In this document: positions 4,774 through 47,777 of the stretch, in pieces
Position numbering within the stretch: position 1 is the first letter of the stretch
How the letters are laid out: each line of letters opens with the position of its first letter
Notes under the pieces: model-generated
Database searches by the model: none
The model's input: the letters and a program-made list of their open reading frames with translations, nothing else
What the model was told of the DNA's origin: nothing
Translations under genes and position numbers: made by a program
NCBI GenBank assembly: GCA_963755715.1
Contig: CAVWLW010000003.1
Coordinates: 73,351-137,350, forward strand
DNA: 64,000 nucleotides
Reading direction: 5' to 3'
DNA from: an uncultured delta proteobacterium
Lineage (GTDB): Bacteria > Desulfobacterota > Binatia > UBA9968

Positions 4774-4820
4774 GTGCGCGCCGAGCCTCAAATCGTTCAA
4801 GCCGTTTAAAACATAAAATT

Positions 4821-6621: not shown

Positions 6622-6659
6622 ACAGCAGCCTCACATGGGAGCGCGGCGAGTTTTGGAAT

Positions 6660-9673: not shown

Positions 9674-9728
9674 GCTTCAAGGTTTTGGCTTTAGGGTGTC
9701 CGGATCTGCTTAGTCTACGAGCACAACA

Positions 9729-10694: not shown

Positions 10695-10727
10695 CCTGCA
10701 TGGGTCGATTACAAAACGAGGTGCGCC

Positions 10728-11567
10728 GTGAAGCAGTTGACAGCTAACGTACTCGTGGAAACCGGGTTGAAGGGCGCCAATCACGGCGTCGTCACGACCT
10801 CGGATGGCGTGGTGTTAATCGATACGCCGCATAAGCCGAGCGACGCCGTGCGGTTGAAAGGGGAGATCGAGCGGCTCGGCCGGCTGCGTTACATTATCAA
10901 CACCGAGCCGCACGGCGATCATTGGACCGGCAATGCTTTCTTCGACGTACCGGTGGTCGCGCACGAAGGCGTGCGCTCGCGCATCCTCGGCACTGATTTG
11001 GCCGCGCATGTCGCGCGCGTGGCTTCCTTCGGACCTGACGAATCAAAGTTTCTGGAAAACTATAAAGCCAACGCGCCGGTGATCACGTTTCAGAGCGAGA
11101 TGACCTTGCACGTGGGCAATCACACGTTTCATATGATCCATATGCCCGGCCACACGCCGTACCAAGCGGCCGTGATCGTCGAAGAAGAAGGCGTCGTTTT
11201 CACCAGCGACAATATTTTTTGCAAGGTGCAGACTTGGCTCCAAGAGGCCAATCCGGATCATTGGCTGAAAGCGCTCGCGTCACTGCGCGCGTTGCGCGAG
11301 GATACGTTCGTCCCCGGCCACGGGCCGGTTTGCGATAAGCGCTACTTGGACGAGCAAGGCTCTTTCATCAGCGAATGGGTCGAGTACGTGCGCGGCGGCA
11401 TCGAGCGCGGCATGAACAAAGAGGAGTGCGTCGCCAACCTCACCGCATTGACCGACCGATATCCTATGGACGTCGGCCAAGACGGCATGGCGCCGCACGT
11501 GATGCGCTTAAACGTCGCCAATCTTTATGATTACCTAACCAGCGCCGGCATCCACAAACCTAGCTAA
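10728..11567 (+). CDS. Metallo-beta-lactamase-fold hydrolase (cyclase-like)
   Basis: INTEPHGDH (variant of HxHxDH), PGHT, SD, VPGHG. Confidence 0.88.
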   Translation: MKQLTANVLVETGLKGANHGVVTTSDGVVLIDTPHKPSDAVRLKGEIERLGRLRYIINTEPHGDHWTGNAFFDVPVVAHEGVRSRILGTDLAAHVARVASFGPDESKFLENYKANAPVITFQSEMTLHVGNHTFHMIHMPGHTPYQAAVIVEEEGVVFTSDNIFCKVQTWLQEANPDHWLKALASLRALREDTFVPGHGPVCDKRYLDEQGSFISEWVEYVRGGIERGMNKEECVANLTALTDRYPMDVGQDGMAPHVMRLNVANLYDYLTSAGIHKPS

Positions 11568-11615
11568 ATATTTTTGGATTTTCGATTGCCGATTTTAGAT
11601 GGGGGAATCGAAAAC

Positions 11616-12687
11616 ATGAATAATCGATTTTGGCGGGCATTTTTCCAGCTGAGTTTGTTTCCTAATCTAAAATCCAAAGCATGTCCTGAGCAACGACGAA
11701 GAATCCAAAATCGAAAACGGATCGGGATTCTTGCAATCGCAATGGCGCTGCTAAGCCATTGGGCGACGGCGTACGGCCAGGAGGGAAAAACCAAGATCAG
11801 AATCGCGATTCCTAGTGCGTCGATATGTTGCCTTCATTTATTTGCCGCGCAGCAGTGGAAAGTTTTCGAAGACAACGGGCTCGACGTCGAGATCATTCAA
11901 ATGCGGCCCGCAGGTGGCCAACGCCGCGATGGTCAGCCGGAGAAATTCATTATTTCGCAGGCGTCGGGCCGAATTCAGTCGCTGCCACTTTGCGGGGACT
12001 ACCGTCAAGGGCAGTTTGGTTTGCATCGGACCAGTTGATTTACTCGCTTGTTGGCGCGTCCGGAGTTCAAATCACTGAGGGAGCTTCGCTCCAAGCGCAT
12101 CGGCGTGGGCGGTTTGGGCGACACCACCGAAGTGTCGCTGAGAATCGGTCTCGAAGCCGCCGGCGAGAATTCCAGAGACTTCATTATCCTCGGCGTAGGC
12201 ACGCAAAACTTGCTGAGCGCGCTCGACAGCGGGAGCGTCGATGCCGCGCAATTCAATCCGCCGCTCCTCTATTATGCAAAAAAGAAAGGCTTCCGCGACC
12301 TGTTGGACATCGGTGCGCATGTAAAAATGCCGCTCGGCGGCCTGACGACGCTGGATCACAACAATTCAAAATCGTCCGGCCGAAATGCGCCGTCTCATTC
12401 GCGCTATGCAGCTCGCCAAGCGAAGCCTGCTTCAGTCCAAGGAAAAAAGTGTTGAACTGATGATCCGCGTGCTGAAATTGAACCGGGAAACCGCCGAGGA
12501 CACTTTTGTTGATTATCAAAAAACCGTCAGCGGCAATGGCGTGCCGAGCCGCGACGGCATCGAACAGATCGTCAAATCGCTTCAGCTGTTAGGCCAATTC
12601 GTCGGTAGGAAGGTCGGCTTCGAAGAAGTTGCCGATGCGCGAATCGCCAGAGAAGTCGCGAAGGAACTGGGTTACAAGATTGAGTAG
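11616..12687 (+). CDS. NMT1/THI5-like substrate-binding protein, subtype A (several frameshifts)
   Basis: KIRIAIPSASICCLHLF; fragments 11825-, 12048- and 12385-12687 are colinear with the 8673-9673 paralog. Confidence 0.8.
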
Positions 12688-12784
12688 CTTGGATTGTCGG
12701 GGGAGACGGGAGTCGAGCCGTACGATTGTTGATCGAGCCAATTTGAGTGCCAGTGTTACCGAGGAATGAAGGGCGGCGAGCGTG

Positions 12785-13758
12785 ATGCAACCCAAGTTCT
12801 TAACGGCATCGTTTTTCGTGGGAGCATTCTGCTTGGTGTCCAATGCCAGCGGCGGTCTATTGGCTCAAGACAAGGTTCGTATCGGCTACATCGGCTTGTC
12901 GTTGAGCAGTATGCCGCTCCTTGCCGCACGGGACCTCGGGTTATTTGCCAAAAACGGCATTCAGGCGGAACTCTTGATGCTTACCTTCCAGCTTTCGTCA
13001 TGGCGCTCAATGCCGGAGACTTGGAATACGTCGCCGGCGTTGGCCCCGGCTCGGTGAGCGCTACCCTGGGAGGGAGCTCGTCGCGCGCGGTGTGGATCGT
13101 CGCCAATCGGCTGATCTACAATGTTATCGCGCAGCCAGAGGTGAAAACGCTTCAAGAGCTTCGCGGCAAGAGGATCGGTGTGAGCGGCCTGGGAGCGACG
13201 ACCCACACTGCGTTTACGATGGCCGTGGAGAAAGCCGGGGCCAATCCGAAGGACTTCATCGTGGTTGGCCTCGGGCCACAACAGCAGCAGCGCGCGCTGG
13301 AGTCGAAGAGCATCGAAGCAGTGATTGTCGATCCGCCGGTGCTGTTTGTATTACTCAAGAAGGGTTTCAGCAAAGTTCTCGATATCGGCGCGGCGGTGGA
13401 AATGCCGGTGGGCGGACTAACGACGCTGATCAAGACTCTGGGCGCCAGACCGGATCAAGTCCGACGCGTCATCAGAGCGCTGCAAGAAGCGAAGGAAGCG
13501 CTCATTGCTTCAAAAGAAAGATCAGTGGACCTTATTGCCAAGACGATGAAAATGGATCAGGAAACCGCGACAAAGACGCATGAGATGATGGCATTGGCGT
13601 GGGCTGGGAGCGGAGTGCCGACGCGAACGGGCATGGAGAATATCGTCAAGGGGATTCAATCTCAGGGTCGATTCGCGGATCGGAAAGTCGCTTTCGAGGA
13701 AATCGCCGACCCACGCCTCGCATTGCAAGTCGCGCGCGAGCTCGCTCACAAGGATTGA
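12785..13758 (+). CDS. NMT1/THI5-like substrate-binding protein, subtype B (frameshift near 12985)
   Basis: MQPKFLTASF signal, DKVRIGY; colinear with 9729-10694. Confidence 0.85.
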
Positions 13759-13897
13759 GAGAGAAACACTTGATCCCGAAATTCGAAACGGATCCAAATA
13801 TTCAATTAGTCGCCGATTTTGGATTTTGATGGAGGGAAGGGACCGTGAAGTAGAAACATAACCGCGAATTCATTTCCATCCATGGTGGGAGTTGCCT

Positions 13898-14878
13898 ATG
13901 TCAAGCTCAAAATTCATATTGTTCTTCCCGGCTTTGGTCGCGTCATTCTATCTCGAGAGCTCGCTTCACGCGCAGGAAAAGTTTAAAAAGATTCGGGTCA
14001 CCTATCCGACCGAATCGATCGCCGTGCTGCCGTTATTCGCCGCCCATCGATGGAAGACCTTCGAAGACAACGACCTGCAAGCGGAAATCATTCAGGCTCG
14101 ATCGCAGGTCGCCAACGCGGCGTTGGCGAGCGGCGAGATCGGGTATTTCGCCGGTGTGGGCCCGGCTTCGGTGAGCGCGACGTTGAGAGGACTTCAGTCG
14201 CGCGCGGTTTGGTTCGCCAGCGACGAGATTATCTACTTGCTGCTCGCCCGGCCTGAATTTTCGAATATCCGGGATCTCCGGCAAAAGAAGATCGGTATCA
14301 CCGGCTTGGGGGGCACGGCGCATGTAGCTTTGCAGATTGCCCTCGAGGCGGTGCACGAGAATCCGAAAAACTTTTTGTACGTGTCGATCACCGCGGCGCA
14401 GCTCATGGCAGCGCTGGAAACCGGCGTCATCGACGCGGCGCTCATGAGTCCGCCTTACGATTTCTACGCTAAGAAAAAAGGATTTCGCGAAGTGCTCAAC
14501 GCGGGGACCTATGCTCGGATGCCTTTCGGTGGCCTCACGGTGATGATCGCGACGCTGCGTAATCGAGCCGACGAGTTAAAGAAGGTGATGCGCGCCATGC
14601 AAGTGGCCAAGCGGGAGATGCTCAAGTCCAAGGAAAGAACTGTCGCGTTGATCTCGAATTTTCTAAAAGTCGACCGCGACGCTGCGGAAAACACCTACGC
14701 GGTTTATGGCAAAACCGTCAGCGGCAGTGGCGTGCCGAGTCATGACGGCATCGATCAGATCATGAAATCACTCCAGTTGGCCGGCCAATTCACCGACCGC
14801 AAAGTGAGCTTTGAAGAAGTCGCCGACGACCGGATTGCCAAGGAAGTCGCCAAAGAGCTCGGCTACAAGATCAATTGA
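13898..14878 (+). CDS. NMT1/THI5-like substrate-binding protein, subtype A
   Basis: KIRVTYPTESIAVL, FAGVGPASVSATLRG, AKEVAKELGYKIN. Confidence 0.88.
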   Translation: MSSSKFILFFPALVASFYLESSLHAQEKFKKIRVTYPTESIAVLPLFAAHRWKTFEDNDLQAEIIQARSQVANAALASGEIGYFAGVGPASVSATLRGLQSRAVWFASDEIIYLLLARPEFSNIRDLRQKKIGITGLGGTAHVALQIALEAVHENPKNFLYVSITAAQLMAALETGVIDAALMSPPYDFYAKKKGFREVLNAGTYARMPFGGLTVMIATLRNRADELKKVMRAMQVAKREMLKSKERTVALISNFLKVDRDAAENTYAVYGKTVSGSGVPSHDGIDQIMKSLQLAGQFTDRKVSFEEVADDRIAKEVAKELGYKIN

Positions 14879-15297: not shown

Positions 15298-15430
15298 ATC
15301 GATATGTGGGTGAAATTTACTTGACCGCTACTACCTGCGCCTCGCCTTGACACACCGAGAGCATGTCGGATATTTCTGACCGCGATACGGTGACGTTCCC
15401 TTTAGCTTTGATTCAGAGAGGAAAGCAGTC

Positions 15431-16579
15431 ATGGCGTTGAGTAAAGAAGAAAACGAAATGCTCACGAGAGTGGGACCGGGCACGCCCGCGGGCGAGATGC
15501 TGCGGCGCTATTGGCAGCCGATCGGCTTGGCGGCGGAGCTTCAAGACAAACCGAAGCGGAGACGCATCCTCGGTGAAGACGTGGTCATGTTTCGTGACGA
15601 TCGAGGCAGGGTTGGAGTGTTGACTTTGCGCTGCATGCATCGCGGCACGTCCTTGGAGTTCGGTCATATCGAAAACGGCGGGCTGCGCTGCTGTTATCAC
15701 GGCTGGCTTTACGACGTCGAAGGCAAGGTTTTGGAAACTCCCGGCGAGCCGCCGGCGAGCACCTTCAAAGAGCGCATTCGTCAGCCGGCTTACAAAGCGC
15801 AGGAATTGGGAGGTGTCATCTTCGTTTATATGGGTCCCGAGCCGGCGCCGCTGTTGCCGAGGTATGATGTCCTGGTGAGAGAGGACGGTGTGCGGGCGCG
15901 GCGCGCGCGTACGGTCAACTGTAATTTTTTTCAGATGATTGAAAACTCCGTCGATCAGAATCATTTGAAGTGGCTGCATCGCACGGCGAAGACGCCGGAC
16001 TGGGACGACGGCGAGATCGATCCACAACCATTCGAATACGGAATTCTCAACACCTACACACGGCGTGTCGCCGGTAAAAAATGGGCGCACTGTAACTTTT
16101 TTGTCATGCCGACGATGAATAAGACCGGCAATGTCGAGGAAGGCCATCCGACCGAACACAGAGCGAGCAGCGCCGGCGAGGTCATGCGCTGGCGGGTGCC
16201 GATCGATGATACGCACTCGATGCATTTCACCGTCGAGTTCGGCGTTGTCGTCGACGGCAAGCCGGTTGCCAACATCATGAAAGACGATTCGGCGGCGGGG
16301 CTTTGCGAGACTCAGTTCGGCGTCTACAAGTGGGATGAATCCATCGGTTGGTTTGCCAGAGGAGATCAAGATCGGGTGGCGCAAGAAAGCCAGGGACCGA
16401 TCTACGACCGGACGACGGAACACCTAGTGTACACGGACCGCGGGGTGATTCTCTTGCGGCGCTTGTACAAAGAATCCATCGAGGCCGTGAAGCGGGGAGG
16501 CGATCCGATCGGCGTCATCCGCGACCCGGAAAAAAATCGGATCATCCGGCTGCAGCCGCATGAGGATTTGCTGGACTAA
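15431..16579 (+). CDS. Rieske non-heme iron oxygenase alpha subunit (phthalate 4,5-dioxygenase/LigX-like) #1
   Basis: LTRVGPGTPAGEMLRRYWQP, Rieske CMH...CCYHGW, catalytic ENSVDQNHLKWLH, QDRVAQESQG. Confidence 0.92.
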   Translation: MALSKEENEMLTRVGPGTPAGEMLRRYWQPIGLAAELQDKPKRRRILGEDVVMFRDDRGRVGVLTLRCMHRGTSLEFGHIENGGLRCCYHGWLYDVEGKVLETPGEPPASTFKERIRQPAYKAQELGGVIFVYMGPEPAPLLPRYDVLVREDGVRARRARTVNCNFFQMIENSVDQNHLKWLHRTAKTPDWDDGEIDPQPFEYGILNTYTRRVAGKKWAHCNFFVMPTMNKTGNVEEGHPTEHRASSAGEVMRWRVPIDDTHSMHFTVEFGVVVDGKPVANIMKDDSAAGLCETQFGVYKWDESIGWFARGDQDRVAQESQGPIYDRTTEHLVYTDRGVILLRRLYKESIEAVKRGGDPIGVIRDPEKNRIIRLQPHEDLLD

Positions 16580-16685
16580 ATAACCCGTTCAAAACGCTCA
16601 AGCAGTTCAAAACGTTCAAGACGTTTGGTCATTCAAAGATTCAAGGTTTCAAAAGTTCAATGTTAGGGCGGGAGCGGAAATCATA

Positions 16686-17759
16686 ATGAAGACCGGCAGG
16701 AAAGGCGTCATTTTCGGATTTTTATTCGCCCTGGTCTCATTTCATTCCGCCGGCGCGGCCGAGACCTTGGACTCATTGATCGCCGGAGCGAAGAAAGAAC
16801 CCGAGTTTACTTTTATTGCCGGGGCGCAGACTTTCGGCGGGCAAAAGACTTTGTCGCTGTTGGAATCCGCGTTCAATAAAAAATTTGGTCTCAACGGCAA
16901 GATTCGTTTCAGCGCCGGACCAGAGATGAACGCCATGGCGGCGCGGGTGATCACCGAGCTCAAGATGGGCGCCAAAGCGTCGAGCGATATCTATCACGGC
17001 TCGCAATCGCATTTCGCTTTGTTGCACAAAGAGAAGGCGCTGGACACAGTGAACTACTCGGGGATCTTTCCGTGGATCACCAAAGACATGGAAATATTTC
17101 CGAGCGAGGGCTTGCTGATTTTTACTTCGCTGCGCGGAATTATTTACAATTCGAAACTCATTCCGAAGGACAGGGCGCCGAAGACCTACGAAGATTTGGT
17201 CGATCCGAAATTGAGTCCGGCGTGGGCCGGCAAGATGGCGATCCCGCCGTACGTTTCGTGGCTGGTCGAGCTGTCGATGATCTGGAGTGAAGACAAGGTC
17301 AAGAATTTCACCCGCAAGCTGGTGGCGCTGAGCGGCGGGCGGTTGCGTTACAGCGAAGAGGAGCGCGTGGTCAGCGGGGAATTTCCGATCGCCGCCAACA
17401 TGGGCGGAGCCACGGAGCAAATGTGGCAGTGGCAAGCCAAGGGCGCGCCGCTGGTGGCGATCATGGGCTCGACGCCGGTGCTGCCGTCTTACTTTCAGCT
17501 CGGTGTGCCGAAGAATACCGCGCATCCAAACTTGTCAAAGCTCTTCGTCGGCTTTATGGCGTCGAAAGAAGCTCAAGCCATCCTCGAAAAAAATGATTTT
17601 CGCACTTCGCACCTCGTCGAAGGCACGATCATGGCGAAGTATCTGAAACAAAATAAAGTGCAGCTGCAGGAAGCTAAAGATTCGATCGCGTTTTATCTAC
17701 AAGGCGAAGATAGCGGCTTGGAGTTCAAAGAAGAGCTGACGAAGATGCTGAAGCAGTGA
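16686..17759 (+). CDS. ABC substrate-binding protein, Fe(III)/thiamine/polyamine-type #1
   Basis: Signal peptide, LIAGAKKE, IIYNSKLIP, PKTYEDLVDP, AHPNLSKLFV. Confidence 0.87.
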   Translation: MKTGRKGVIFGFLFALVSFHSAGAAETLDSLIAGAKKEPEFTFIAGAQTFGGQKTLSLLESAFNKKFGLNGKIRFSAGPEMNAMAARVITELKMGAKASSDIYHGSQSHFALLHKEKALDTVNYSGIFPWITKDMEIFPSEGLLIFTSLRGIIYNSKLIPKDRAPKTYEDLVDPKLSPAWAGKMAIPPYVSWLVELSMIWSEDKVKNFTRKLVALSGGRLRYSEEERVVSGEFPIAANMGGATEQMWQWQAKGAPLVAIMGSTPVLPSYFQLGVPKNTAHPNLSKLFVGFMASKEAQAILEKNDFRTSHLVEGTIMAKYLKQNKVQLQEAKDSIAFYLQGEDSGLEFKEELTKMLKQ

Positions 17760-17771
17760 ACGATGCATGGT

Positions 17772-17830
17772 GTAGGGGCGACCCTATGTGGTCGCCCGTT
17801 CGGAGGGCGGACACACAGGTCCGCCCCTAC
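17772..17830. repeat. GTAG-family REP doublet
   Basis: gtaggggcgaccctatgtggtcgccc-gttcgga-gggcggacacacaggtccgcccctac: GTAG...CTAC ends and two hairpins. Confidence 0.85.
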
Positions 17831-17888
17831 ATCGGAATGTCTTGATGATCCGATTGGGCGTTGCGAATAGAAGGAAGGAAATCCTCCC

Positions 17889-19023
17889 ATGCTGTCGAAA
17901 GAAGAAAACGAACTCTTGACTCGTGTCGGTCCGGGTACGCCGGCGGGAACGATGCTGCGCCGTTACTGGTGGCCGGTGGCGTTCAGCGAAACGGTGAAAG
18001 CCAAAGGCGCTCCGGTCAAAGTGAAGTTGTTGGGGGAAGAGTTTGCGATGTTTCGCGATGGCGCGGGACAGACTCGGACTCGTCGCTCTCCATTGTTCGC
18101 ATCGAGGTACTTCGCTCGAATATGGCCGCGTCGAGGACAATGGCATTCGCTGTTGTTATCACGGATGGCTCTACGACATTCAAGGCAATTGTTTGGAGCA
18201 ACCTGCGGAGCCCGGCGATAGCACTTTCAAAGAACGTATTAAGCACCCGGCATATCATGCGCACGATGCCGCCGGACTAATTTTCGCTTATGTCGGGCCG
18301 GAGCCGGTGCCAATGCTGCCGAGTTACGACTTGCTCGTCAGAGAAGACGGCTGCCGCGTGGTCGGCGGCGACGAAGAAAATTGCAATTGGTTGCAGCGCG
18401 CCGAGAACTCGGCGGACGGCGCGCATTCGATCGCGCTGCATGCGGCGGGTTATCCAAACATGGCATTGAAGCGGCCGACGATTAAATGGGAGCCGACGCG
18501 ATTCGGCATCAAAGAAACTACCTGGATCGAAGATGTGTCGAAACCGCGCATTTCCCATTACGTTTTTCCATCGCATGTGCGCCACTCCGCGGCACGCGTC
18601 GGCGAGCAACCGCGCCAGGTGATCCGTTTCCGCGTTCCGACCGACGATGTCACGACGACCACGTTCTGGATCGATTTCTATCCGCACAAAGAGGGGAAAC
18701 CGACTAGACCGATGGCGTTGTCCATCAAAGGATTTAGAAAAAGCCAACCGGGCGTTTACGAGCGAGTCCAAGACGGCTGGTGGAATCTTCCTAACCGGGA
18801 GCAAGACCGTGTGGCTCAGGAAAGCCAGGGCCTAGTCGCGGATCGCACCAAGGAGCATTTAGCAACCTCGGATCAAGGGATCTTGATGCTGCGCAAGATG
18901 ATTCGAGACTCGATCGAGGCGGTGCAACAAGGCAAGGATCCGATCGGCGTGATTCGAGATTCCAATGACAACGGACCGATTACCTTCGACTCCAGCAGAG
19001 ATGCCGTCGAGGCATTGAGTTGA
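17889..19023 (+). CDS. Rieske oxygenase alpha subunit #2 (frameshift near 18070)
   Basis: MLSKEENELLTRVGPGTP, CSH...CCYHGW, ENSADGAHSIALH, QDRVAQESQG. Confidence 0.9.
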
Positions 19024-19102
19024 AGCTAATACGAGTCGAAGATCGAGGATCGCAATTTTCCATCCTCCATTCGCGGCCGCATTGCTGAGAGAGGTGAAAC
19101 TG

Positions 19103-20161
19103 ATGCTCTATGTCTTGATCGTCTGCGGCGTCTTTTTGCACGCGCTATTATCCGCTACATCCGCGCAGGCGCAAAAGCTGGAGCAGATCGTCGCGGAAGC
19201 GAAGAAGGAAGGGGAAGTCATGCTGGTCGCCAGCGCGTCGACTTTCGGCGGTAAGAAAGGATTTGCCGAGCTCGAAAATCTTTTCGCCAAACGTTACGGT
19301 TTCAAGGCCAAGGTCAGTCTCACCGGCGGCCCGAGCTTTCCTCAAGTGGCCGCACGCATCATCGCCGAGCAAAAGGCGGGAGCCAAATCGTCCACTGACA
19401 TGTACCTAGGGTCCGACGGGACTTATGTGACCATGGATCAAGAAAAGGCGCTGGAAAAGGTGAACTGGTCGGGAGTCTTTCCCTGGGTGACCAAAGAGAT
19501 GGAAATTTTTCCGCAGCAGTCGGTGCTGATTTACGCTTCGTTTCACGGCATCATCTACAATTCGAACTCGATCCCGAAAAATAAGGCGCCGAAGAGTTAC
19601 GAAGATCTGATCGATCCGGCGCTCGCGCCCACTTGGGCGGGAAAGATGGCGATCCCTTCGTATATTCACTGGCTGCTGCGCGTGTCGCCGATTTGGGGGC
19701 GGGAAAAAGTTTTGCCTTTCGCGCGCAAGCTCGCGACTCTGGTCGGCGGACGATTGCGCCAGGGAGAGGAAGAACGCATCGTCAGCGGCGAGTTCCCGAT
19801 CATGGCAAGCACCGGCGGTGCGCTGGAGGCGATGTGGAAATGGCAAGCCAAGGGGGCGCCGCTCGTGGGGCTGCCCGGCTCGACGCCGGCGACAAGCTCT
19901 TATTATCAACTGTCGGTGCCGAAAAATTCGGTTCATCCGAATATGGCCAAGCTATTCATCGCGCTTATGGTGACCCGAGAAGGCCAGGCAGTGCTGGAAA
20001 AGAACGACATGCGCAGCTCCTACCTGGTCGACGGCACGCTGATGTCAAAGTACGTCAAAGCCAACAAGCTTAAGCTGCAAGATCCGCGCGAGCTGAACGA
20101 AGTTTTCCAGAAGGAAGACACCAGCCTGGAAGAAGAGTTGACGAAAATCCTGTTGAAATAG
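19103..20161 (+). CDS. Fe/thiamine-type substrate-binding protein #2
   Basis: Paralog of 16686-17759: AKKEGEV, STFGG, VSGEFP, HPNMAKLF. Confidence 0.87.
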   Translation: MLYVLIVCGVFLHALLSATSAQAQKLEQIVAEAKKEGEVMLVASASTFGGKKGFAELENLFAKRYGFKAKVSLTGGPSFPQVAARIIAEQKAGAKSSTDMYLGSDGTYVTMDQEKALEKVNWSGVFPWVTKEMEIFPQQSVLIYASFHGIIYNSNSIPKNKAPKSYEDLIDPALAPTWAGKMAIPSYIHWLLRVSPIWGREKVLPFARKLATLVGGRLRQGEEERIVSGEFPIMASTGGALEAMWKWQAKGAPLVGLPGSTPATSSYYQLSVPKNSVHPNMAKLFIALMVTREGQAVLEKNDMRSSYLVDGTLMSKYVKANKLKLQDPRELNEVFQKEDTSLEEELTKILLK

Positions 20162-20210
20162 GCCCGGGTTTCAAACCTCCCTTAGCTGGATCGGAAACAT
20201 ATAACGCTGC

Positions 20211-21956
20211 ATGTCGACACAAGTTCTCACTGTTGATCAACCGCGGCCGCTGGTGAATTGGTCGAAGCTAGGGCTCTTGGCGATAGCCGGTTTGGCGGCG
20301 CTCTCGATCCTCACTCTGCTGGGCATGATCATCTGGATGAGCCTGCGCACGGGCGTGCCCGGCCAGCCTTCGGCGTACACATTGAAGAACTACGCGGCGC
20401 TGCTCGGCGATTCCTATACCTATCGGGTCATGACCACCACGCTGATTTTCGCGGCGATCACGATCGCCGTTTCGGTGCCGCTGGGATTCATCTTCGCCTG
20501 GTTCATCGAACGGACCGACATACCGTACAAGACAGTGGCCATGAGTGTGCTCAGCATCGGTATCTTGTTCCCGACTTTTCTCAAAGCCATGGGTTGGGTG
20601 TTTCTGCTCCATCCGCGCATCGGCGTGATCAACATTTTCTTGATGCAGCTTTTCGGCCTGACAAACGCGCCGCTCAATATTGCGACGCTCCCCGGAATCG
20701 GTTTCGTGCAAGGCATGACGCTAACCCCGCTCGCCTATGTGATGATCTCGGCGGCCTTGCGCAGCATGAATCCTGCGCTGGTCGAAGCCGCCAGCGTCCA
20801 CGGCGTGAGCCAGTGGCGCACGCTCGTGCGCATCGAGCTGCCGCTCATCTGGCCGGCGTTGTTCTCGGCCGTCATCTGGATGCTTACGGTGGCTATCGCC
20901 GCCTTCGACGTGCCGGGAGTGATCGGCATGGCCAATAATATTTTTACCTTCAGCACCGCGATCTACTTCATGATCAATCCCAACGAAGGCTTGCCGCGTT
21001 ACGGGCTCAGCGGCGCCTACGGCAGCCTCATGGTCGGTTTTTCGTTGATTCTGATGATTCCCTATTTCCGCGCTTTGAAGCAGAGCCACCGTTATCAAAT
21101 CATCTCGGGCAAGTCGTATCAGTCGCGGCCGGTCGCGCTCGGGCGCTGGTGGCTGCTCGGTTGGGGCTTGCTTGGATCATATTTTCTGCTCGCATTCGTG
21201 TTGCCGCTGCTGGCGATTTTCTGGGTGTCATTATTGCCTTACGTTCAAGCACCGTCGTGGCACGCGCTATCGGTCATCTCTTTCGAACGCTACACGCAGA
21301 TCGCGTTTGACAGAGCGCTTTTGGAGGCGGCGATGAACACGGTGCTGTTGATGGTGATCGTGCCGACGGCCATCGTGATCATTTGTTCGGCGATTTCCTG
21401 GATCGTCACCCGCTCGCGTATGCGCTGGCGCGTCGTGCTCGATGCCATTGCGTTTTTGCCCCATCCGGTGCCGCACCTGCTGTTCGCGCTTTCGATCGCC
21501 TATCTGGCATTGCTGATTTCCAACGTGGTCCCGCTCTACGGCACGATCTTCGTGCTGATGGCGGTTTACGTCGTGTGTTGGATCAGCTTCGGCACGCGGG
21601 TGCTCAACAACAGCATGATCCAAGTGCATCGCGAGCTGGAAGAAGCGGCGCAGGTCGGCGGCGCGTCGACATGGCGCATTCTCTTGAAAGTGATCGTGCC
21701 GTTGATCAAACCGGGACTGATTTACACCTGGATTTGGACGTCGCTTTCGGCTTATCGCGAGCTAACGATGGCGGTGTTTTTAGCGTCGCCGAAAAGCCAG
21801 GTGTTGTCGACTTACATTTGGGGCCAGTGGCACGGCGGCGGACTCGGCGACGCGGCGGCGATCGCAATAGTCATGATCGCTGTGATGGCGCCGCTGGTGA
21901 CGACCTTTTGGATCTACGCGCGCAAGCAGCAGCACGTGGCCTCGTCGGCGACGTAA
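20211..21956 (+). CDS. ABC permease with duplicated TM domain (FbpB/ThiP-like)
   Basis: 581 aa, highly hydrophobic, two EAA loops (LVEAASVHG, LEEAAQVGG). Confidence 0.92.
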   Translation: MSTQVLTVDQPRPLVNWSKLGLLAIAGLAALSILTLLGMIIWMSLRTGVPGQPSAYTLKNYAALLGDSYTYRVMTTTLIFAAITIAVSVPLGFIFAWFIERTDIPYKTVAMSVLSIGILFPTFLKAMGWVFLLHPRIGVINIFLMQLFGLTNAPLNIATLPGIGFVQGMTLTPLAYVMISAALRSMNPALVEAASVHGVSQWRTLVRIELPLIWPALFSAVIWMLTVAIAAFDVPGVIGMANNIFTFSTAIYFMINPNEGLPRYGLSGAYGSLMVGFSLILMIPYFRALKQSHRYQIISGKSYQSRPVALGRWWLLGWGLLGSYFLLAFVLPLLAIFWVSLLPYVQAPSWHALSVISFERYTQIAFDRALLEAAMNTVLLMVIVPTAIVIICSAISWIVTRSRMRWRVVLDAIAFLPHPVPHLLFALSIAYLALLISNVVPLYGTIFVLMAVYVVCWISFGTRVLNNSMIQVHRELEEAAQVGGASTWRILLKVIVPLIKPGLIYTWIWTSLSAYRELTMAVFLASPKSQVLSTYIWGQWHGGGLGDAAAIAIVMIAVMAPLVTTFWIYARKQQHVASSAT

Positions 21957-22022
21957 AGTTAAAGAATTCGCAGCGACAAAATCCAGGCCGATCGCCACAG
22001 CCCCTGCAGGTCGCTAAAATAG

Positions 22023-22118
22023 CCGTTCATCTTTCGACAAAAGCTCAAGACGAACGGGGAAGCGGTTGAAATCGGTTGAGGTTTTTCCGTTCGCGCTGAG
22101 GTTCTCGAAGCACGAGCG
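22023..22118. repeat. CCGTTC...GAACGG palindromic repeat pair
   Basis: ccgttcatctttcgacaaaagctcaagacgaacgg and ccgttcgcgctgaggttctcgaagcacgagcg; same family as 14989-15078. Confidence 0.7.
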
Positions 22119-22165
22119 TCATTATTCATCAACGTGGCAGCGCAAACGACCGGAGGTATTCTGCC

Positions 22166-23326
22166 ATGACGGCGACGACAGAAACGCCGAGCGTAACGAG
22201 CGACGGCGTCGATTTCGTTCACACCGGACCGGGAACGTTAGCCGGACGATATTTGAGAATGTTCTGGCAGCCGGTCTACGTTTCTCAGGAGCTGAGAGCC
22301 GGCTACGCCGTGCCGATCCATATCATGGGCGAAAGCTTCACGCTTTATCGCGGCGCGAGCGGAAAGGCTTACGTCGTCGATTTTCGCTGCGCCCATCGGG
22401 GCACGCAGCTATCGGTCGGCTGGGTCGAGGACGATTGCATCCGCTGTTTCTATCACGGCTGGAAATACGACGGCGCCGGCCAATGCATCGAGCAGCCGGC
22501 GGAAAACGAAAGTTTCGCGCAGAAAATAACCATTCGTAGCTGCCCCACGCAGGAGTACTTGGGCCTGATCTTCGCCTACTTCGGCGAGGGGGCGGCGCCG
22601 CCGTTGCCAGGCTATCCCGAATTGGAGGAGGACGGCGAGATCGACGTTGGCACGTATATCCGCCACTGCAATTATTTCAACACGCTGGAAAACGGCATCG
22701 ATCAGGCGCATGTGCCGTTTACCCACGCGAAATCGAACTTCACCAAGTTCGGTCTCAACTGGGACATTCCAAAAATCACCGCCGAGGAAACCGACTACGG
22801 CGTGGCGATGTACGGCACGCGCGCCAACGGCGTCGCGCGGGTCAACCATTACCTCATGCCCAACATTCTTTACATCAAAGGCTCGCCGGAGAGCGCGAAA
22901 GAAGGCTGGCGCGAAGCTTTCGCCTGGCGGGTGCCGGTCGATGACGTGAGTCATCGGAGCTTCAACATCGCGCTTATACACGTGAGCGGCGATGCGGCGC
23001 TGCGTTTTCGCGAGCGCCAACGTCGACAAGAAGAAATTATCTCGGCGCTTCCCTCGGCCAACGTGATGGCGGCGGCGGCGCTGGCCGGACAACTGAGCGT
23101 GCACGACATCGAGGAGCGCCCCGATCTCGTGAACATTCAAGATCACGTCGCTCAAGAAGGGCAAGGCGCGATTCCCAACCGAGCAACTGAGCGTTTGGGC
23201 CGCTCGGATACGGCGATTATCCTCATGCGGCAGATCTGGCGGCGCGAGTTGCGCGCGCTGGCCGAGGGGAAATCTCTCAAACAATGGTCCCGCCCCGGGC
23301 GATTGGTCGCGACGAGCGGCGTGTGA
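22166..23326 (+). CDS. Rieske oxygenase alpha subunit #3 (LigX-like)
   Basis: HTGPGTLAGRYLRMFWQP, CAH...CFYHGW, ENGIDQAHVPFTH, QDHVAQEGQG. Confidence 0.92.
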   Translation: MTATTETPSVTSDGVDFVHTGPGTLAGRYLRMFWQPVYVSQELRAGYAVPIHIMGESFTLYRGASGKAYVVDFRCAHRGTQLSVGWVEDDCIRCFYHGWKYDGAGQCIEQPAENESFAQKITIRSCPTQEYLGLIFAYFGEGAAPPLPGYPELEEDGEIDVGTYIRHCNYFNTLENGIDQAHVPFTHAKSNFTKFGLNWDIPKITAEETDYGVAMYGTRANGVARVNHYLMPNILYIKGSPESAKEGWREAFAWRVPVDDVSHRSFNIALIHVSGDAALRFRERQRRQEEIISALPSANVMAAAALAGQLSVHDIEERPDLVNIQDHVAQEGQGAIPNRATERLGRSDTAIILMRQIWRRELRALAEGKSLKQWSRPGRLVATSGV

Positions 23327-24415
23327 GGAAAATTCTCTTGGCGCAGATAAACCGCTACGCACGCCGGCTGTTCTTTCTGCTGTCAGTCCTCGCCGCTCAG
23401 CCGTGTTCGGTTTTGGCTGAGACCCCGGAGCAATTGATCTCGGCCGCAAAGAACGAGAAGGAGCTTTTCTTTGTCGCCGGTCCGACGACTTTCGGCGGCA
23501 AGAAAGGACTTGTCGGAAATTGAAGCGGCTTTCAACAAGCGGTTCGGATTGAATGCGCGGATTCGCTTCAGCGCCGGACCGGAAATGAACGCGATGGCGG
23601 CGCGGGTGATCAGCGAGGTCAAAGCCGGCGGAAAGGCGTCGACCGACATCTATCTCGGCTCCCTAGGCCAGTACGCTAATTTATTTCGCGAAGACGCCTT
23701 GGAAGAAGTCAATTGGTCGGCAATATTTCCGTGGATCGCCCGGCCGATGGAAGAGATCGTGGCCAAGAAAGGCGTGCTGGTTTATTCATCGCCGCGCGGG
23801 ATTATTTACAACACCAATCTGATAGCGCCGGACAAAGCGCCGAAGAGTTATGAGGACTTGATCGATCCACGGTTGAGCCAGACGTGGGCGGGAAAGATCG
23901 CGGTGCCGCCTTATCCCAACTGGCTGGTCGAGTTGTCGCTGATCTGGGGCGAAGAAAAGCTCAAAGACTTTACCCGCAAGTTGGTGGCGCTCAACGGCGG
24001 CTGGCTGCGCTACGGCGAGGAAGAGCGGGTGATCAGCGGCGAATTTCCGATCATGGCGAACATCGGCGACGCGCTGGCGACGATGTGGAAGTGGCAAGCG
24101 AAAAGCGCGCCGCTGGTCGCGGTGCTCGGCTCGACTCCGGGCGATACGTCTTATTTTCATCTCGGCGTGCCGAAGAACTCCGGTCACCCCAATCTGGCCA
24201 AGCTCTTCGTCGCTTTCATGATCTCCAAAGAAGGGCAAGCGCTCATCGAGAAACATGAGCTGCGCTCGTCCCATCTGGTCGAAAGCTCGCGTATGGCGAA
24301 ATATCTGCGCGACAACAAGATCAGATTGCAGGAGCCCAAAGACTTATTCAATTTCTATCTCAAAGGCGGTGGCGCCAAGTTGAATGAGGAGCTGGTGAAG
24401 ATGCTGAAGCAATAA
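23323..24415 (+). CDS. Fe/thiamine-type substrate-binding protein #3 (frameshift near 23505)
   Basis: GTG start overlaps the TGA of Rieske #3; AGPTTFGG, SAGPEMNAMAARVI. Confidence 0.85.
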
Positions 24416-24448
24416 ATGGGATTGGTTCGCCAACTTTAAGCGCGCACG

Positions 24449-25228
24449 ATGATCACTCAAGAACAAAATAATTTATTGACGCAAACCGGCCGCAGCACGC
24501 CCTGCGGCGAATTGATGCGCCGGTATTGGCAGCCGGCAGCTTTATCGGAAGACTTGACGGCCGACAAACCGTTGCCGGTCACATTGTTCGGCGAAGAATT
24601 GATTTTGTTTCGCGACGATCAGAGCGGTCCTGCGCTGATTGGACGCTACTGCGCGCACCAGGGCTTCGATATGGTTTACGGCCGCGTCGAGGCCGGCGGC
24701 CTGCGCTGCATGTATCATGGTTGGCTGTTCGATGCTTGCGGCAAAGTCGTGGTGCGTGGCGATTGGTTGCCGGGAGGAGAACAACGAATGTCGGTGGGAC
24801 AGCCGGCCTATCCGTGCGTCGAGGCCGGCGGCGTGATTTTCACATATCTGGGACCGGGCGAGGCGCCAACGTTGGTAGTCCATGAATTGTTCGTCAAGCT
24901 ACCGACGCGTTTCGCGCTGACGAAAATTCTCCGCGACGAAAATTACCTGCAAGGAATTCTCCGCGCCAACGTATCGCCGCTCGACGGTGCGAGATTCGTC
25001 ATGCCCAATCTCGTGTTCTCTCCGGGGGCGTCAGGCGCAGAAAGTTGGGTGCGCTGGTGCGTGCCGGTTGATGACAGCTCTTATGTGGAATTTACCTTTC
25101 TGTACTTCGAAGAGTCGCCGATCCCAGGCGAGCCGCGGGATGCAGCCCAGGCGGTCCTGCTCAAAGCGATTGAAGAAATTTGCGCTCAGCGGCGAGTTGC
25201 GTCGGAATCTGCGGCGAAAGATCGCTAG
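24449..25228 (+). CDS. Short Rieske-domain protein #4 with degenerate catalytic domain
   Basis: CAH...CMYHGW intact; lacks the D-x2-H-x4-H motif and the C-terminal QD. Confidence 0.8.
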   Translation: MITQEQNNLLTQTGRSTPCGELMRRYWQPAALSEDLTADKPLPVTLFGEELILFRDDQSGPALIGRYCAHQGFDMVYGRVEAGGLRCMYHGWLFDACGKVVVRGDWLPGGEQRMSVGQPAYPCVEAGGVIFTYLGPGEAPTLVVHELFVKLPTRFALTKILRDENYLQGILRANVSPLDGARFVMPNLVFSPGASGAESWVRWCVPVDDSSYVEFTFLYFEESPIPGEPRDAAQAVLLKAIEEICAQRRVASESAAKDR

Positions 25229-27121: not shown

Positions 27122-28349
27122 ATGCAGCAATCGGAACGTTGGAAAAATCGTTTTAAGGCAGTGGCGCTCGGTATCGGTCTCGCTCTGACGATGCTGACCA
27201 TTCGCCATTGGTACGAGACATTCATCCTTTGGACATCCGCTATGCGATGACTGTCGGCTCGATTTTCCGCAGTTTTACGCCGCGCGCCAAACTGATTTGG
27301 GAAAAACCCTCCGCGCTTTACGACAACGCATCGCAGCTGGCGATTCAAAAAGCGATCGACAACCGCATCGGCGATTCGATTTTGCCGTTCGCCTATCCGC
27401 CGGTCACGGCTCTTGTATTGATGCCATTGGGCTGGCTGTCGTTCCGCATGGCTTTTGTGGCAATTACCCTCGTCAATATCGGCGCTGCTATTGGTGTTCA
27501 CGCTCAGGCTGTTAATCCGCAAGCTCGGTCTCAAAAGCGAACAATCGACATGGTTGCTACTCAGCACGTTTTGCAATTTCGGTGTCCATAGCGTTCTCCT
27601 CCAAGGGCAGACTTCGTTGGTGGTCTTGTTCTGTCTTACTGCCTTTATGTTCTCGGCAATGAGCGGCAAACAATTCCATCGCGGGATTTTGGGCCGGACT
27701 TAATTTCTTGAAACCTCAACTCCTCCCAGTGCCGTTTATTGCTCTCACTTTTCAACGGCTGTGGCAGGCGCTTTCGATTGCCGCCGTCGTAGTCGCGGGG
27801 CTCTGCTTGCTGTCTGTGGTTCTCGTTGGGACAGAAGGAATCAGCCAATATCTTCAACTGTTGAGATTCTATAGTACGACCGAAAGTGGCTTCGGAAGCT
27901 ATCCCGAGAAGATGCATAACTTGAGAGCGTTAGTCCAATATTTTGCGCCGTTTTCACTGGCACCGTATCTTTGGGTTGCAATGGTGGTTCCCATAGCCCT
28001 TTTGACCATGTGGCTTAATGCGAGCAAAGTGGATGGCGACGATAAGACAGCATTTTTGTGGATCGGAAACTTTCTTACAATGATGCTGATAACGCCGCAT
28101 CTTTATTCGCACGATCTTTCTTTTTTGCTTGTGCCGAGCGCATTGACCTTGAAACTCTCGGGCGCGACAGTTCCCTTATTCGTTCCACCGTTGTTAATTT
28201 GCTTGAGTGTCCTGCCCATTTTACCTCTGGTGGTCGGCAACCCAGTGCCGCCGCCGCTGCCGATAATTTTTTTGCTCGCCTACTTCGGCTGTGTATGGAT
28301 GGTGCGGAAATCGATTACGAAACGATCCAGTTTGGTTGCAGAATTCTAA
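27122..28349 (+). CDS. Glycosyltransferase family 87 (DUF2029-like) membrane protein (frameshifted)
   Basis: PFAYPP, QGQTS, KPQL, PHLYSHDL in successive frames; multi-TM. Confidence 0.75.
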
Positions 28350-28393: not shown

Positions 28394-29858
28394 TTACAAG
28401 GTCCGGCGCTTTTCCAAACGGAGGGAAAAATTCGGTTTCTGTATGAATACGCTGTTGCGCTCGGTTTGTTTGCTGAGTTCGCCGACGAGATTCACCAGCG
28501 GGTTTCCATTGGTTCGATAGTGACGCGGCGGTCCGGCGGCGTGCATGCGCTCGACATCTTCTTTGCTCGTGAAAAAGCGTGACAGCACTTCTTCATCAGA
28601 GATGCCTTGTCCGCCGTATTTACGCCGCAAGTCTTGCAGAGAATCACTTGGATGGGGCCGCTCGGCAATCTCTTTGGCGCGCGGGCGGTTGAGAATTTTC
28701 TCCTTCACAGTTCGCGTCCATGAAGGCGGCGCCCTCTTTGCCCCAGATGCCCATGGCGTATTCAATCGTCTGATCGGTGACTTGCTTGTAGCGCTCGCCG
28801 ACGATGACATTGATGGCCGCCTGGCTGCCGACGAACTGCGACAGCGGTGTCACCATGATCGGGTAACCGAAGTCGGCGCGTACCTGAGCGGCTTCTTCCA
28901 ACGTCCGGTCAACTTTGTTTTCCATGCCGACGCGGCGCAGCTGATAACGCAAGTTGGAAATCATGCCGCCAGGAATTTGATGCACGTATTGCGCGTAGTC
29001 GTATTCCGGCGTTTTGCCGATGGGCAGGTTTTCCTCCTTGGCACAGGCGGTGAAATGCTTCGCCACGTGACGCAGCGGTTCTTCATCGATCGCCGTTTTG
29101 AAACCCAACGCGCGCGCATTCATCGCAACATTAAAAATCGACGGATTCGACGAGCCATCAGCCAGCGGTGGAATGGCGGTGTTGACGTGGGTCATGCCGG
29201 CTTTGATCGCTTCCAGGCAGCAGAGCGTGCCGAGTCCCGTCGTGCAGTGCGTGTGCAATTCCACGGTCTTCCCGCCGGCTGCCTTCAGCACCGCCGGCAC
29301 TACAGTCTTGGTTCTTTCGGGAGTCAAGATGCCGCCCGGGTCCTTGAAAATAACCCGATAGACATCGAGAGCGAATGCTTCGCGGATCTTGCTGGCGAAG
29401 TATTCGTCGGTGTGACGTGGCGACACGGTGTAAATAAGATTAATGATCGGTTTGAGTCCGGCGTTCTTTGCTTGTTTAACGCGCCAAGCCCAATCCGCGG
29501 GATCGTTCCACGAGTCGGAAATGCGCACCTCGGTTACGCCGACATTGGCCATGCAGGTATCGTAAAGCTGATGCAGCGCTGCCGGGTAAATCGCAAAGCC
29601 GCTGCGCGTGCCGTGGATCAACCGTAAGGGTGTTTTTTTGAATTTCGGGATGACTAACCGATAGCGCTCCCAGGGATCCTCGCGCAGCTCTTTGACGCAC
29701 TTGGGCAGCTCGACCGGTCCGCCGAGCTCGACGGCTTCGAAACCGGCAGCGTCGATGTATTCCACAATGGGCACGATCATGCCGGTTCTCATGTTGTACG
29801 CCCATAGACTTTGTTGCCCGTCGCGCAGTGTGGTGTCGACGAAAAGAACTTCAGTCAT
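28394..29858 (-). CDS. Pyruvate carboxylase B/oxaloacetate decarboxylase alpha-like carboxyltransferase, no biotinyl domain (frameshift near 28715)
   Basis: DTTLRDGQQSL, FKDPGG, HTHCT, HQIPGGMISNL, GYPIMVTPLSQFVG. Confidence 0.88.
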
Positions 29859-29929
29859 TGCGAGTATTCCGGAATTTAATTTTGCGAATGAAAACGATTT
29901 TATCAAATGACGAAAATTGTCGAGCGGCT

Positions 29930-30383
29930 CTACTCCTCGCGCAGCCAAATTTGGCTGCGGCCGAATAAGGAAAAGCCGACAAAGCCGCGCACCTCGAGTT
30001 TACTGCCGCCGTCGATAACTTTCATCTTAGCGCGGTAGATCGTGCCAGTCTCGGGATCGAGTATCTCTCCTCGCTTGGTATTCGTCGCCTTGCTTTTTGA
30101 GCCCCCACATAAACGTCATGCCCAGCACAGGTTGATTACGCCGGGCGCCGTCGCACTTCTCGCACTTCGGCGCCGGATCGTCGCCTGGTGCGGGGAAAAT
30201 TTTTTCGATCTTGCCCTCGTACTGGCCGTTGACCTCGCGAATCCGAATCAGGCCCTTGGCCTTGCCGGAATGCTCGTCGACGGTTTTCCACAAGCCCGAT
30301 GGCGATAATTCGGCCGCGCCAAGAGGAAGCGACTGGAGACATAGGATGATTACCAAGAAAAGCCAATGACGGATTTCGCGCAT
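29930..30383 (-). CDS. DUF2147 family exported protein (frameshift near 30072)
   Basis: GLWKTVD, CEKC, GEILDP, LEVRGFVGFSLFGRSQIW. Confidence 0.85.
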
Positions 30384-44335: not shown

Positions 44336-44360
44336 CCCCTTAAAAAATTTTTTCCGGTGA

Positions 44361-44405
44361 TTCTTGACAAAGCTGATAGATTTACTTATCTACTAATTCA
44401 GTAGA
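44361..44405 (+). promoter_or_regulatory. Promoter-like box with perfect TTGACA and palindrome TCTACT-N5-AGTAGA (candidate Rrf2 operator)
   Basis: TTGACA at 44364-44369; palindrome at 44389-44405 in AT-rich DNA upstream of the sulfate operon. Confidence 0.55.
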
Positions 44406-44438
44406 ATTTATCGATGTTCTATTTTTCCAAAGGAATTT

Positions 44439-46022: not shown

Positions 46023-46035
46023 TGAGAGCAGAATC

Positions 46036-47776: not shown

Positions 47777-47777
47777 G

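Follow-up and report, generated by a model that had tools for sequence, protein, structure and literature searches.

ATP-binding cassette (ABC) importers in which several paralogous receptors share one membrane complex are exemplified by HisJ/ArgT with HisQMP2, and the membrane proteins TpiBA likewise serve several binding proteins. In the tph operon of Comamonas, tphC is located together with the terephthalate dioxygenase genes and the membrane genes tpiBA lie elsewhere (PMC8556258). The iphA2CBA1 cluster comprises genes for a dioxygenase, a reductase, a transporter and a dehydrogenase (PMC12445078). Here, we describe an array of alternating genes for Rieske oxygenases and ABC solute-binding proteins, interrupted by one permease gene, in an uncultured delta proteobacterium of the Binatia. 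The array occupies positions 15431-25228 of a 64,000-nucleotide stretch of contig CAVWLW010000003.1 (positions 73,351 to 137,350), which is called the window throughout. With slightly better than even confidence, we propose that it serves the uptake and oxidation of aromatic carboxylates, by means of an ABC importer with multiple receptors and matched oxygenases in the cytoplasm.

The closest functional precedent is the Comamonas tph operon, followed by the iph cluster. In these operons, a binding-protein gene adjoins the gene of the Rieske dioxygenase that acts on the same aromatic dicarboxylate, and membrane parts are shared or remote. A comparable arrangement is seen in the array. The differences are considerable. 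The array transporter is of the ABC type with binding proteins of the FbpA/AfuA class (SBP_bac_1/6/8/11), not a TctC-type tripartite tricarboxylate system, and in the array and related loci three to five oxygenases alternate with three to four receptors. Genes for an IclR-type regulator, a dihydrodiol dehydrogenase and a reductase are missing from the array, and its host is a member of the Binatia, whereas Comamonas is a proteobacterium. Compared with HisJ/ArgT-HisQMP2, the system would have six receptors, mostly encoded beside a catabolic oxygenase gene, and its ATPase gene is detached in this lineage. The strategy is thus a known one, and its layout in the array is new.

A literature search found no paper joining Binatia and Rieske. 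The terms Rieske, dioxygenase, ABC transporter, substrate-binding, aromatic and phthalate had zero occurrences in the main text of the Binatota genome survey PMC8262859. Literature on Rieske proteins together with binding proteins, ABC or Fe3+ transport described no such pairing, judging by titles and the beginnings of abstracts.

Gene order of the array and its conservation in Binatia

Listing of open reading frames (ORFs) together with Pfam and NCBIfam scans gave the gene order R1-S1-R2-S2-permease-R3-S3-R4, with all genes on the plus strand (Table 1). Here, R denotes a Rieske alpha subunit of the phthalate/isophthalate-dioxygenase family and S an ABC binding protein of the FbpA/AfuA class. 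Order and strand had been proposed in an earlier sequence-only reading of the window, and two of its finer details were reproduced as well: a 4-bp overlap (GTGA, 23323-23326) shared by the R3 stop codon and the GTG start codon of S3, and a fourth S paralog at 38279, which lies in an ORF beginning at 38270. Judged by eye, the N-termini of the S proteins are hydrophobic and signal-like, those of the R proteins are not. The ORF and domain scans detected no beta subunit, reductase or ATPase gene within 15431-25228. The same gaps had been noted before and hold for the array; the missing ATPase, however, is true of this lineage only, as some relatives carry one.

The window is part of contig C3 of a 7.4-Mb metagenome-assembled genome (MAG; G000), which is 93.6% complete. 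Species-representative genomes were scanned with S1, and the window proteins were mapped on the 23 loci (L) obtained, nearly all of them from Binatia or delta-proteobacterial MAGs; orthologues and related loci bear the source names Candidatus Binatia or 'Deltaproteobacteria bacterium'. With 23 loci of Binatia MAGs sharing it, the order R1-S1-R2-S2-permease(-R3-S3) is more than a chance arrangement. R1 was followed by S1 in 20 of the 21 loci showing R1 (the exception, L021, has no S1), S1 by R2 in 18 of 19 (in L015, S1 stands directly before the permease gene) and R2 by S2 in 19 of 19. S2 was located directly before the permease gene in 14 loci and before R3 or R3 remnants in four. An extra R1'-S1'-R2' triple was present upstream in six loci; in the window's genome this triple is found at the end of contig C39.

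Pairwise ratios of nonsynonymous to synonymous substitution rates (dN/dS) from five species pairs were 0.048-0.159 for R1, S1, R2, S2, the permease gene, R3 and S3, where dS was often >1 and the least saturated pair gave 0.05-0.085. Judged by these ratios, all seven genes (R1 to S3 and the permease gene) are under purifying selection. Near-identical sequence, amounting to at least half of the sampled words, was recovered from each of at least 14 sequencing runs, which are without exception soil, rhizosphere or freshwater-sediment metagenomes.

The genome as a whole is rich in both gene families. It contains 47 Rieske-domain matches, and tblastn yielded 39 oxygenase-like R features, about 128 S-family features and 24 fused-permease features. 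An S-family gene is clustered with 11 of the 39 R features (four on C3, two each on C27 and C39, one each on C13, C63 and C68). Binatia are widespread uncultured soil bacteria, and with gene families of this size, one understood array would help to read much of the genome's catabolic potential.

Table 1. Features of the array and related elements in the window (window coordinates; aa, amino acids; nt, nucleotide)
Feature	Coordinates	Strand	Description
Promoter-like site upstream of R1	15347-15374	+	TTGACA-16-GATATT, 10/12 matches; weak evidence
R1	15431-16579	+	382 aa; Rieske oxygenase alpha subunit, phthalate/isophthalate-dioxygenase family; Pfam Rieske 2.1e-18, LigXa_C weak
S1	16686-17759	+	357 aa; predicted periplasmic ABC solute-binding protein, FbpA/AfuA/MctA-class fold; Pfam SBP_bac_1/6/11
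R2	about 17889-19023	+	Rieske oxygenase alpha subunit; 1-nt insertion near 18070 splits gene
S2	19082-20161	+	359 aa; solute-binding protein paralog; Pfam SBP families; 55% identity to S1
Permease	20211-21956	+	581 aa; fused two-domain ABC permease; BPD_transp_1 in two stretches
R3	22166-23326	+	386 aa; Rieske 1.1e-20, VanA_C, weak LigXa_C; subfamily differs from R1/R2
S3	23323-24415	+	Solute-binding protein, GTG start; Pfam SBP families; 1-nt insertion near 23513 splits gene
R4	24449-25228	+	259 aa; degenerate Rieske stub
S4	38270 (ATG at 38279)-39358	+	Orphan S paralog, 57-60% identity to S1/S3; no adjoining Rieske gene

Oxygenase and binding-protein genes are gained and lost together

R3 and S3 co-occurred in seven loci (L001, L002, L004, L007, L010, L021 and L022). 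Five tested genomes have arrays that lack both genes (those of L006, L008, L014, L018 and L019). In these genomes the best R3 match did not exceed 54% identity (none in G004 at the threshold used) and the best S3 match did not exceed 67%. These are paralog levels, compared with orthologue levels of 74-95% for R3 and 77-92% for S3. R3 remnants without S3 were seen in L012 and L016, and in L015 both R2 and S2 are missing. A further copy of the unit was found on contig C13 of the window's genome, where an R3-like (66%) and an S3-like (63%) gene are located directly behind a catechol-2,3-dioxygenase-like gene and opposite a gene for an HpaB-type hydroxylase. The R3-S3 overlap, the co-duplication on C13 and the co-loss in five genomes support the view that R-S units behave as modules.

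The sequence-only reading had assigned each oxygenase its own receptor. For R3-S3 this matching is well supported and for R2-S2 it is plausible; a one-to-one assignment did not emerge for R1-S1 versus S1-R2. Congruence of the R and S trees, which the same reading had named as a check, was examined with the paralogs of this genome and was found at the tips and not deeper. Among 70 S-family ORFs (FastTree), S1, S2, S3, S4 and the copies on C13 and C39 formed one clade with a support of 100. Its members are 55-68% identical among themselves, and a Rieske gene adjoins five of the six. When the S tree was labelled by Rieske adjacency, two changes were counted, whereas shuffled labels required 4.9 on average and none of 500 shuffles reached so low a value. 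In the Rieske tree (33 ORFs), R1 paired with a copy on C67 that has no S, R2 joined weakly, and R3 was placed with the C13 copy in a distant, separate starred clade. Accordingly, cassettes have co-duplicated at the tips, but the array was not built by simple repetition of one R-S pair.

Three oxygenases retain both metal sites

The Rieske proteins had been placed in the phthalate/LigX family from sequence alone, and searches of solved structures agreed, with phthalate dioxygenase (PDO) and isophthalate dioxygenase (IPDO) as closest relatives. For R1 the best solved relatives were 7fhr (1.8e-47), which is probably RO_CH34, and the phthalate dioxygenase 7fjl; the R1 matches were confined to the N-terminal half. 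R3 aligned along its whole length (residues 18-370) to the isophthalate dioxygenase 9ina, with E 8.5e-33. Taken together, R1 and R3 matched 7fhr, 7fjl and 9ina with E values of 1e-24 to 1e-47, and biphenyl-/benzene-type alpha subunits with 1e-5 or weaker. The R proteins share the Rieske and mononuclear-iron motifs and the N-terminal signature with the alpha-only enzymes PDO (7fjl/7v25), IPDO (9ina) and RO_CH34.

All four R proteins matched the Pfam Rieske family, and in alignment A2 the Rieske ligands CxH...CxxH of R1-R4 form the invariant columns C68, H70, C87 and H90. The motif D-x2-H-x4-H constitutes the mononuclear iron site of such oxygenases. Together with the downstream Asp, it was present in R1-R3 and in all orthologue groups, and reads DQNHLKWLH in R1. 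The bridge by D174 described for IPDO is consistent with this role (PMC12445078). The ligands in R1-R3 are intact, as had been noted before, and the proposed stronger divergence of the substrate half was confirmed by half-by-half comparison: identity in the Rieske half versus the catalytic half was 60% versus 35% for R1 and R2, and 38% versus 27% for R1 and R3.

A different picture was obtained for R4, which had been counted as a fourth oxygenase. R4 retains the Rieske [2Fe-2S] ligands, but in alignment A2 it lacks about 50 residues including D-x2-H-x4-H as well as the last ~85 residues, and it occurs in 0 of the 23 related loci. One independent contig of 2518 nucleotides runs from S3 through R4 into the next gene, a convergent 2-hydroxyacid dehydrogenase gene; because this contig spans it, the stub is real DNA and no assembly artefact. 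Its closest paralog is located at C63:20963 (54% over 180 amino acids). By these alignments, the working oxygenases number three, not four.

Structure 9INA is the IPDO of Comamonas testosteroni KF1, in which R234 is a conserved carboxylate anchor, equals R244 of PDO and is kept in terephthalate dioxygenase too (PMC12445078). The residue numbering of IPDO was mapped to the chain with an offset of +23 derived from D174. R234 aligned to the Arg of the R3 segment 'ARVNHYLMPN'. R3 further agrees with IPDO at G172, V178 and I246, but has Gln, Ser and Phe where IPDO has T175, F249 and H257. At the anchor position, 18 of 19 R2 sequences and seven of nine R3 sequences carry Arg (the other two R3 sequences were unreadable by pattern), and the R2' copies carry Lys. 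Because the R1 match is N-terminal only, pocket residues are replaced in R3, and no partner of the PDO-reductase type was found in the genome, the substrates are presumably not phthalate or isophthalate themselves. An aromatic carboxylate as substrate would fit the conserved Arg in R2 and R3 and the Glyoxalase/C23O-like ring-cleavage neighbours of paralogous units. The observations speak neither for nor against N-heterocyclic or metal-chelated substrates, which the sequence-only reading had also considered. The context of such units points to aromatic catabolism: besides the C13 unit, a unit with the order NMT1-S-R-Amidohydro_2 is present on C68, and the window itself holds a gene of the carboxymuconolactone-decarboxylase family and two Amidohydro_2 genes.

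Binding proteins with group-specific differences

Profile and Foldseek searches placed the S proteins in the Fe(III)/AfuA cluster, whose class II periplasmic binding fold they share; they are mutual paralogs, as had been noted from sequence alone, and belong to the Fe(III)/AfuA/PotD class. S1 by itself hardly matched any solved chain, the best being MctA (7f6u, E 0.007). A profile built from 89 relatives matched HitA, SfuA, YfuA, FbpA, AfuA (4r72), MctA and P5PA with E values of 1e-15 to 1e-23. The AlphaFold2 model of S1 has a pLDDT (predicted local distance difference test) of 94, and Foldseek searches with it returned HitA, MctA, P5PA, PotD1, FutA and a glucose-6-phosphate binder at template modelling scores of 0.6-0.7 with no clear best. 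Assigning a ligand from fold or sequence was rejected, as binders of different ligands rank equally in both kinds of search. Among 1.84 billion cluster representatives, 1859 relatives of S1 were found at E <=0.001 and only 83 at <=1e-30; S1 orthologues are 78-97% identical among the at least 120 clusters listed.

The orthologue groups of S1 (20 sequences), S2 (18) and S3 (7) differ from each other at nine positions that are >=85% conserved within each group and differ among all three (107, 109, 149, 190, 191, 239, 245, 265 and 266). These positions fall into five loop segments, located where strands of the model end or helices begin, and two of the segments align to the 'TEESP' and 'NNYY' stretches of HitA. 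Taken together with the lack of an iron-binding Tyr-Tyr pair (see below), this leads us to infer that each S protein binds an organic ligand, probably an anion, which differs from those of its paralogs but is related to them, and that bare Fe(III) is not bound.

One permease and a candidate remote ATPase

The array permease is the only member of its clade in the genome, with next paralogs <=47% identical, and scored 135.8 bits against the PhnU2 model, far under the cut-off of 593. Six S paralogs thus face a single permease of that clade, and in gene counts the proposal of several receptors for one permease holds. The array does not form a complete one-locus type I ABC importer, as it has no ATPase gene.

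An ATPase gene (ABC_tran+TOBE_2) directly follows the permease gene in L012, L015, L016, L018, L019 and L021, the last being cut by the locus end. In the window's genome the best match of these in-array ATPases is C36:7609-8670 (60.5%), which has no adjoining permease or binding-protein gene. It belongs to the row GST-DUF218-ATPase-LigXa-type Rieske at C36:5851-10000 (L028), which is conserved in three relatives (L035, L036 and L037). A C36-type ATPase at 80-82% identity was present in six tested related genomes without an in-array ATPase, to which the window's genome adds C36. Where the array has its own ATPase (four genomes tested), no better C36 match than this ATPase was obtained (61-63%). 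All 11 genomes conform to this complementary pattern, which makes the C36 ATPase the best candidate partner of the array permease.

Alpha-only oxygenases of the phthalate family receive electrons from FNR-type reductases that carry a plant-type ferredoxin at the C-terminus (PDR/VanB type). The domain scans gave little indication of such an electron donor. NAD_binding_1 matched the genome once, in a 587-amino-acid MOSC-FAD_binding_6-NAD_binding_1-Fer2 fusion (C58:22465-24228), Reductase_C had no match, and the two lone Rieske ferredoxins have no reductase neighbour. The apparent absence of a canonical reductase for 39 Rieske features is a question in its own right.

Other transport loci were observed in the same genome. 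A compact S-Rieske-(GFO_IDH_MocA fragment)-permease-ATPase locus at C63:644-7048 (L025) represents a complete ABC importer with an embedded oxygenase gene; the assembly breaks the permease gene and the ATPase gene of this locus into two ORFs each. The minus strand of C27 (213500-229000, L029) carries, in transcription order, four to five ORFs of the S family, one of which seems to be split, followed by genes for a fused permease and two Rieske oxygenases; an ATPase and a second permease were found beyond this cluster as tblastn features. The window contains a second ABC system at 43886-48656, with genes for a regulator of the Rrf2 family, a binding protein of the SBP_bac_11 type, a 522-amino-acid fused permease and a CysA-like ATPase that has a regulatory domain at its C-terminus.

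A proposed system for uptake and oxidation of aromatic carboxylates

The array is real, conserved and under selection, and most of the outline drawn by the sequence-only reading holds. In the proposed mechanism, S1, S2, S3, S4 and the two copies elsewhere would each capture one related anionic aromatic compound in the periplasm, most likely an aromatic carboxylate from plant or lignin breakdown. All S proteins would dock on the single fused permease, energized in this lineage by an ATPase from another locus, for which the C36 orphan is the best candidate. Inside the cytoplasm, the alpha-only oxygenases R1, R2 and R3 might hydroxylate or demethylate the imported substrates as the first step, with electrons from a presumed donor. 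R-S cassettes would be gained, duplicated and lost as units. If the S proteins do bind aromatic acids, the FbpA/AfuA cluster would gain a new ligand class, each S could be used as bait for the substrate of its orphan oxygenase, and the cassettes could provide ready-made uptake-plus-oxidation parts for the conversion of lignin or plastic monomers.

A more far-reaching version can be put forward only tentatively. A branch of the Fe(III)/sugar-phosphate class may have been retooled in Binatia for aromatic acids, with portable R-S cassettes, one permease and an ATPase relocated beside another Rieske gene. If this holds, the array would be a plug-in system that widens the usable range of plant-derived aromatics.

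Several observations weigh against an importer with matched oxygenases for aromatic carboxylates. S1 and S3 are sisters, whereas R1 groups with R2 and R3 is distant, so that the trees agree at the tips only, and S adjacency is scattered over the Rieske tree (five changes versus a shuffled mean of 5.7). In L021, R1 is present but S1 is not, the R1'-S1'-R2' triple offers one S for two R, and S4 has no R; a Rieske remnant was not detected upstream of S4 either (best tblastn E 0.11). No such S lies near 28 of the 39 Rieske features. The complementarity of the ATPases tracks the split of two lineages and may be a single event, and the two ATPase types are ~60% identical, versus ~80% for the permease. 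Within the array (15431-25228) there is no gene for a regulator or a dihydrodiol dehydrogenase, and no canonical reductase was found in the 93.6%-complete genome. The position of the carboxylate anchor is occupied by His in 18 of 20 R1 orthologues. We know of no aromatic-acid ligand for this class of binding proteins, and fold and sequence searches gave only binders of Fe(III), metal-citrate, sugar phosphates, pyridoxal phosphate, polyamines and 2-aminoethylphosphonate.

Some of these points would be explained by a single pathway, an alternative that we regard as rather unlikely. Here, the S proteins would import a single parent compound or a few related ones, for instance biaryls from lignin or methoxylated acids, and R1-R3 would act sequentially on pathway intermediates by O-demethylation and hydroxylation. 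The adjacency of R and S would then reflect co-regulation and operon history, not a receptor per oxygenase. The incongruence of the deep R and S trees and the unequal numbers of the two genes (the triple, L021 and orphan S4) are compatible with this, as is the origin of R1/R2 and R3 from deeply separated Rieske clades, set against S proteins that are 55-68% identical. The LigXa_C and VanA_C matches and the Amidohydro_2 neighbours, moreover, recall the multi-step catabolism of lignin biaryls. Against a single pathway stand the strictly joint gain, duplication and loss of R3 and S3 and the absence of both R2 and S2 in L015. The conserved group-specific differences at cleft-like positions argue that the ligands of S1, S2 and S3 may differ, and the array contains no ring-cleavage or dehydrogenase gene.

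A role in metal supply is less probable still and would be surprising to us. The S proteins and the permease would take up iron or metal chelates and be co-expressed with the iron-rich oxygenases, without importing their substrates. This would agree with the source names of the orthologues ('ABC-type Fe3+ transport system substrate-binding protein'), with ferric-binding proteins and the metal-citrate binder MctA as best profile and fold matches, and with the approximately three iron atoms per oxygenase alpha subunit of this kind (PMC12445078). The S proteins share the fold and the type of fused permease with FbpA/HitA, MctA, AfuA/VcA0625 (sugar phosphates) and P5PA (pyridoxal phosphate), but the iron-binding Tyr-Tyr is absent, two MctA residues differ and the S genes are genomically tied to Rieske oxygenases. 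Of the binding residues of MctA known from mutant entries (S26, D28, S79, S164, T199 and Y221), T199 corresponds to Glu and Y221 to Thr in S1, and the remaining four are outside the alignment or unreliably placed; a literature search found no paper on MctA as a metal-citrate ABC transporter. HitA 'NNYY' contains an adjacent Tyr-Tyr, which we take to be its iron ligands, and aligns to a segment that reads Gly-Ala in S1; S2-S4 likewise have no Tyr there. The lack of an FbpA-type Tyr-Tyr pair fits an organic ligand and not bare iron. A single metal species would also hardly explain six paralogs whose pockets differ from group to group, and specific co-loss of R3 and S3 is unexpected from a general iron supply.

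Frameshifts and assembly quality

The sequence-only reading described the genes without frameshifts. In this assembly, however, one +1 frameshift interrupts R2 and another interrupts S3; the N-terminal part of R2 is in one frame and its Rieske/LigXa_C part, from 18043, in another. Contigs of public runs from three independent soil/rhizosphere studies (X1, X6 and X7) were aligned to the region. Every covering contig was one base shorter at 18070/18072 in R2, and the contigs of X6 and X7 were one base shorter at 23513 in S3, where X1 has no cover. Relatives hold both halves in a single frame (R2 in L001 and others, S3 in L002 and L022). Because the independent contigs and the relatives lack the insertions, these are probably assembly errors, or else very recent private mutations, and not signs of decay. 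Other genes of the 76-contig MAG are split as well: on each of the contigs C64, C31 and C24, the permease match consists of two pieces, with a spacing, as read from the coordinates, that is not a multiple of three. That the array is a tandem-duplication remnant with broken R2, S3 and R4 and no coherent present function is very improbable and largely refuted, for although two frameshifts, a truncated R4 and many split genes elsewhere in the assembly (the C64, C31 and C24 permeases, the C63 permease and ATPase) would fit such decay, the frameshifts are missing from independent contigs and relatives, the seven genes have dN/dS values of 0.05-0.16, their order is shared by 23 loci, and only R4 is truly degenerate.

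Gene fragments were noticed at 27708-28349 (C-terminal part of a GT87 gene) and 59009-59599 (an RnfD-family piece) of the window, and a PYC_OADA/HMGL-like gene at 28644-29948 is shorter than the version of relatives. Together with the two 1-nucleotide insertions, the fragments suggest frequent indel errors in this assembly. In the intergenic region between S1 and R2, contigs of three studies end at 17800-17833 with shared loose ends, which suggests a strain-variable insertion or alternative sequence at this site.

Other features of the window

Promoter-like sites were not enriched in the region (4 versus a shuffle mean of 3.9), terminator-like sites were not commoner than in shuffles, and Rfam gave zero matches over the whole window. 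Short contigs of metatranscriptome X15 (92-99% alike) covered parts of R1, R2, the permease gene and S3; these were rejected as transcript evidence, as contigs from RNA libraries may be DNA.

A second expanded receptor family is located near the array. Many genes for NMT1/SsuA-like binding proteins, several apparently truncated (e.g. 8740-9441, 233 amino acids), were found at 8740-14878, 31665-32618 and 49151-50134, where they interleave with a gene for an MBL-fold hydrolase, one for a luciferase-like monooxygenase and Amidohydro_2 genes. A hydantoinase/oxoprolinase A gene and two B-subunit genes are present at 2715-8417. The selenocysteine synthase gene selA lies on the minus strand at 697-2196; in L004, genes for SelA, SelB and a selenophosphate-synthetase-like protein (AIR synthase related) are located upstream of the array.

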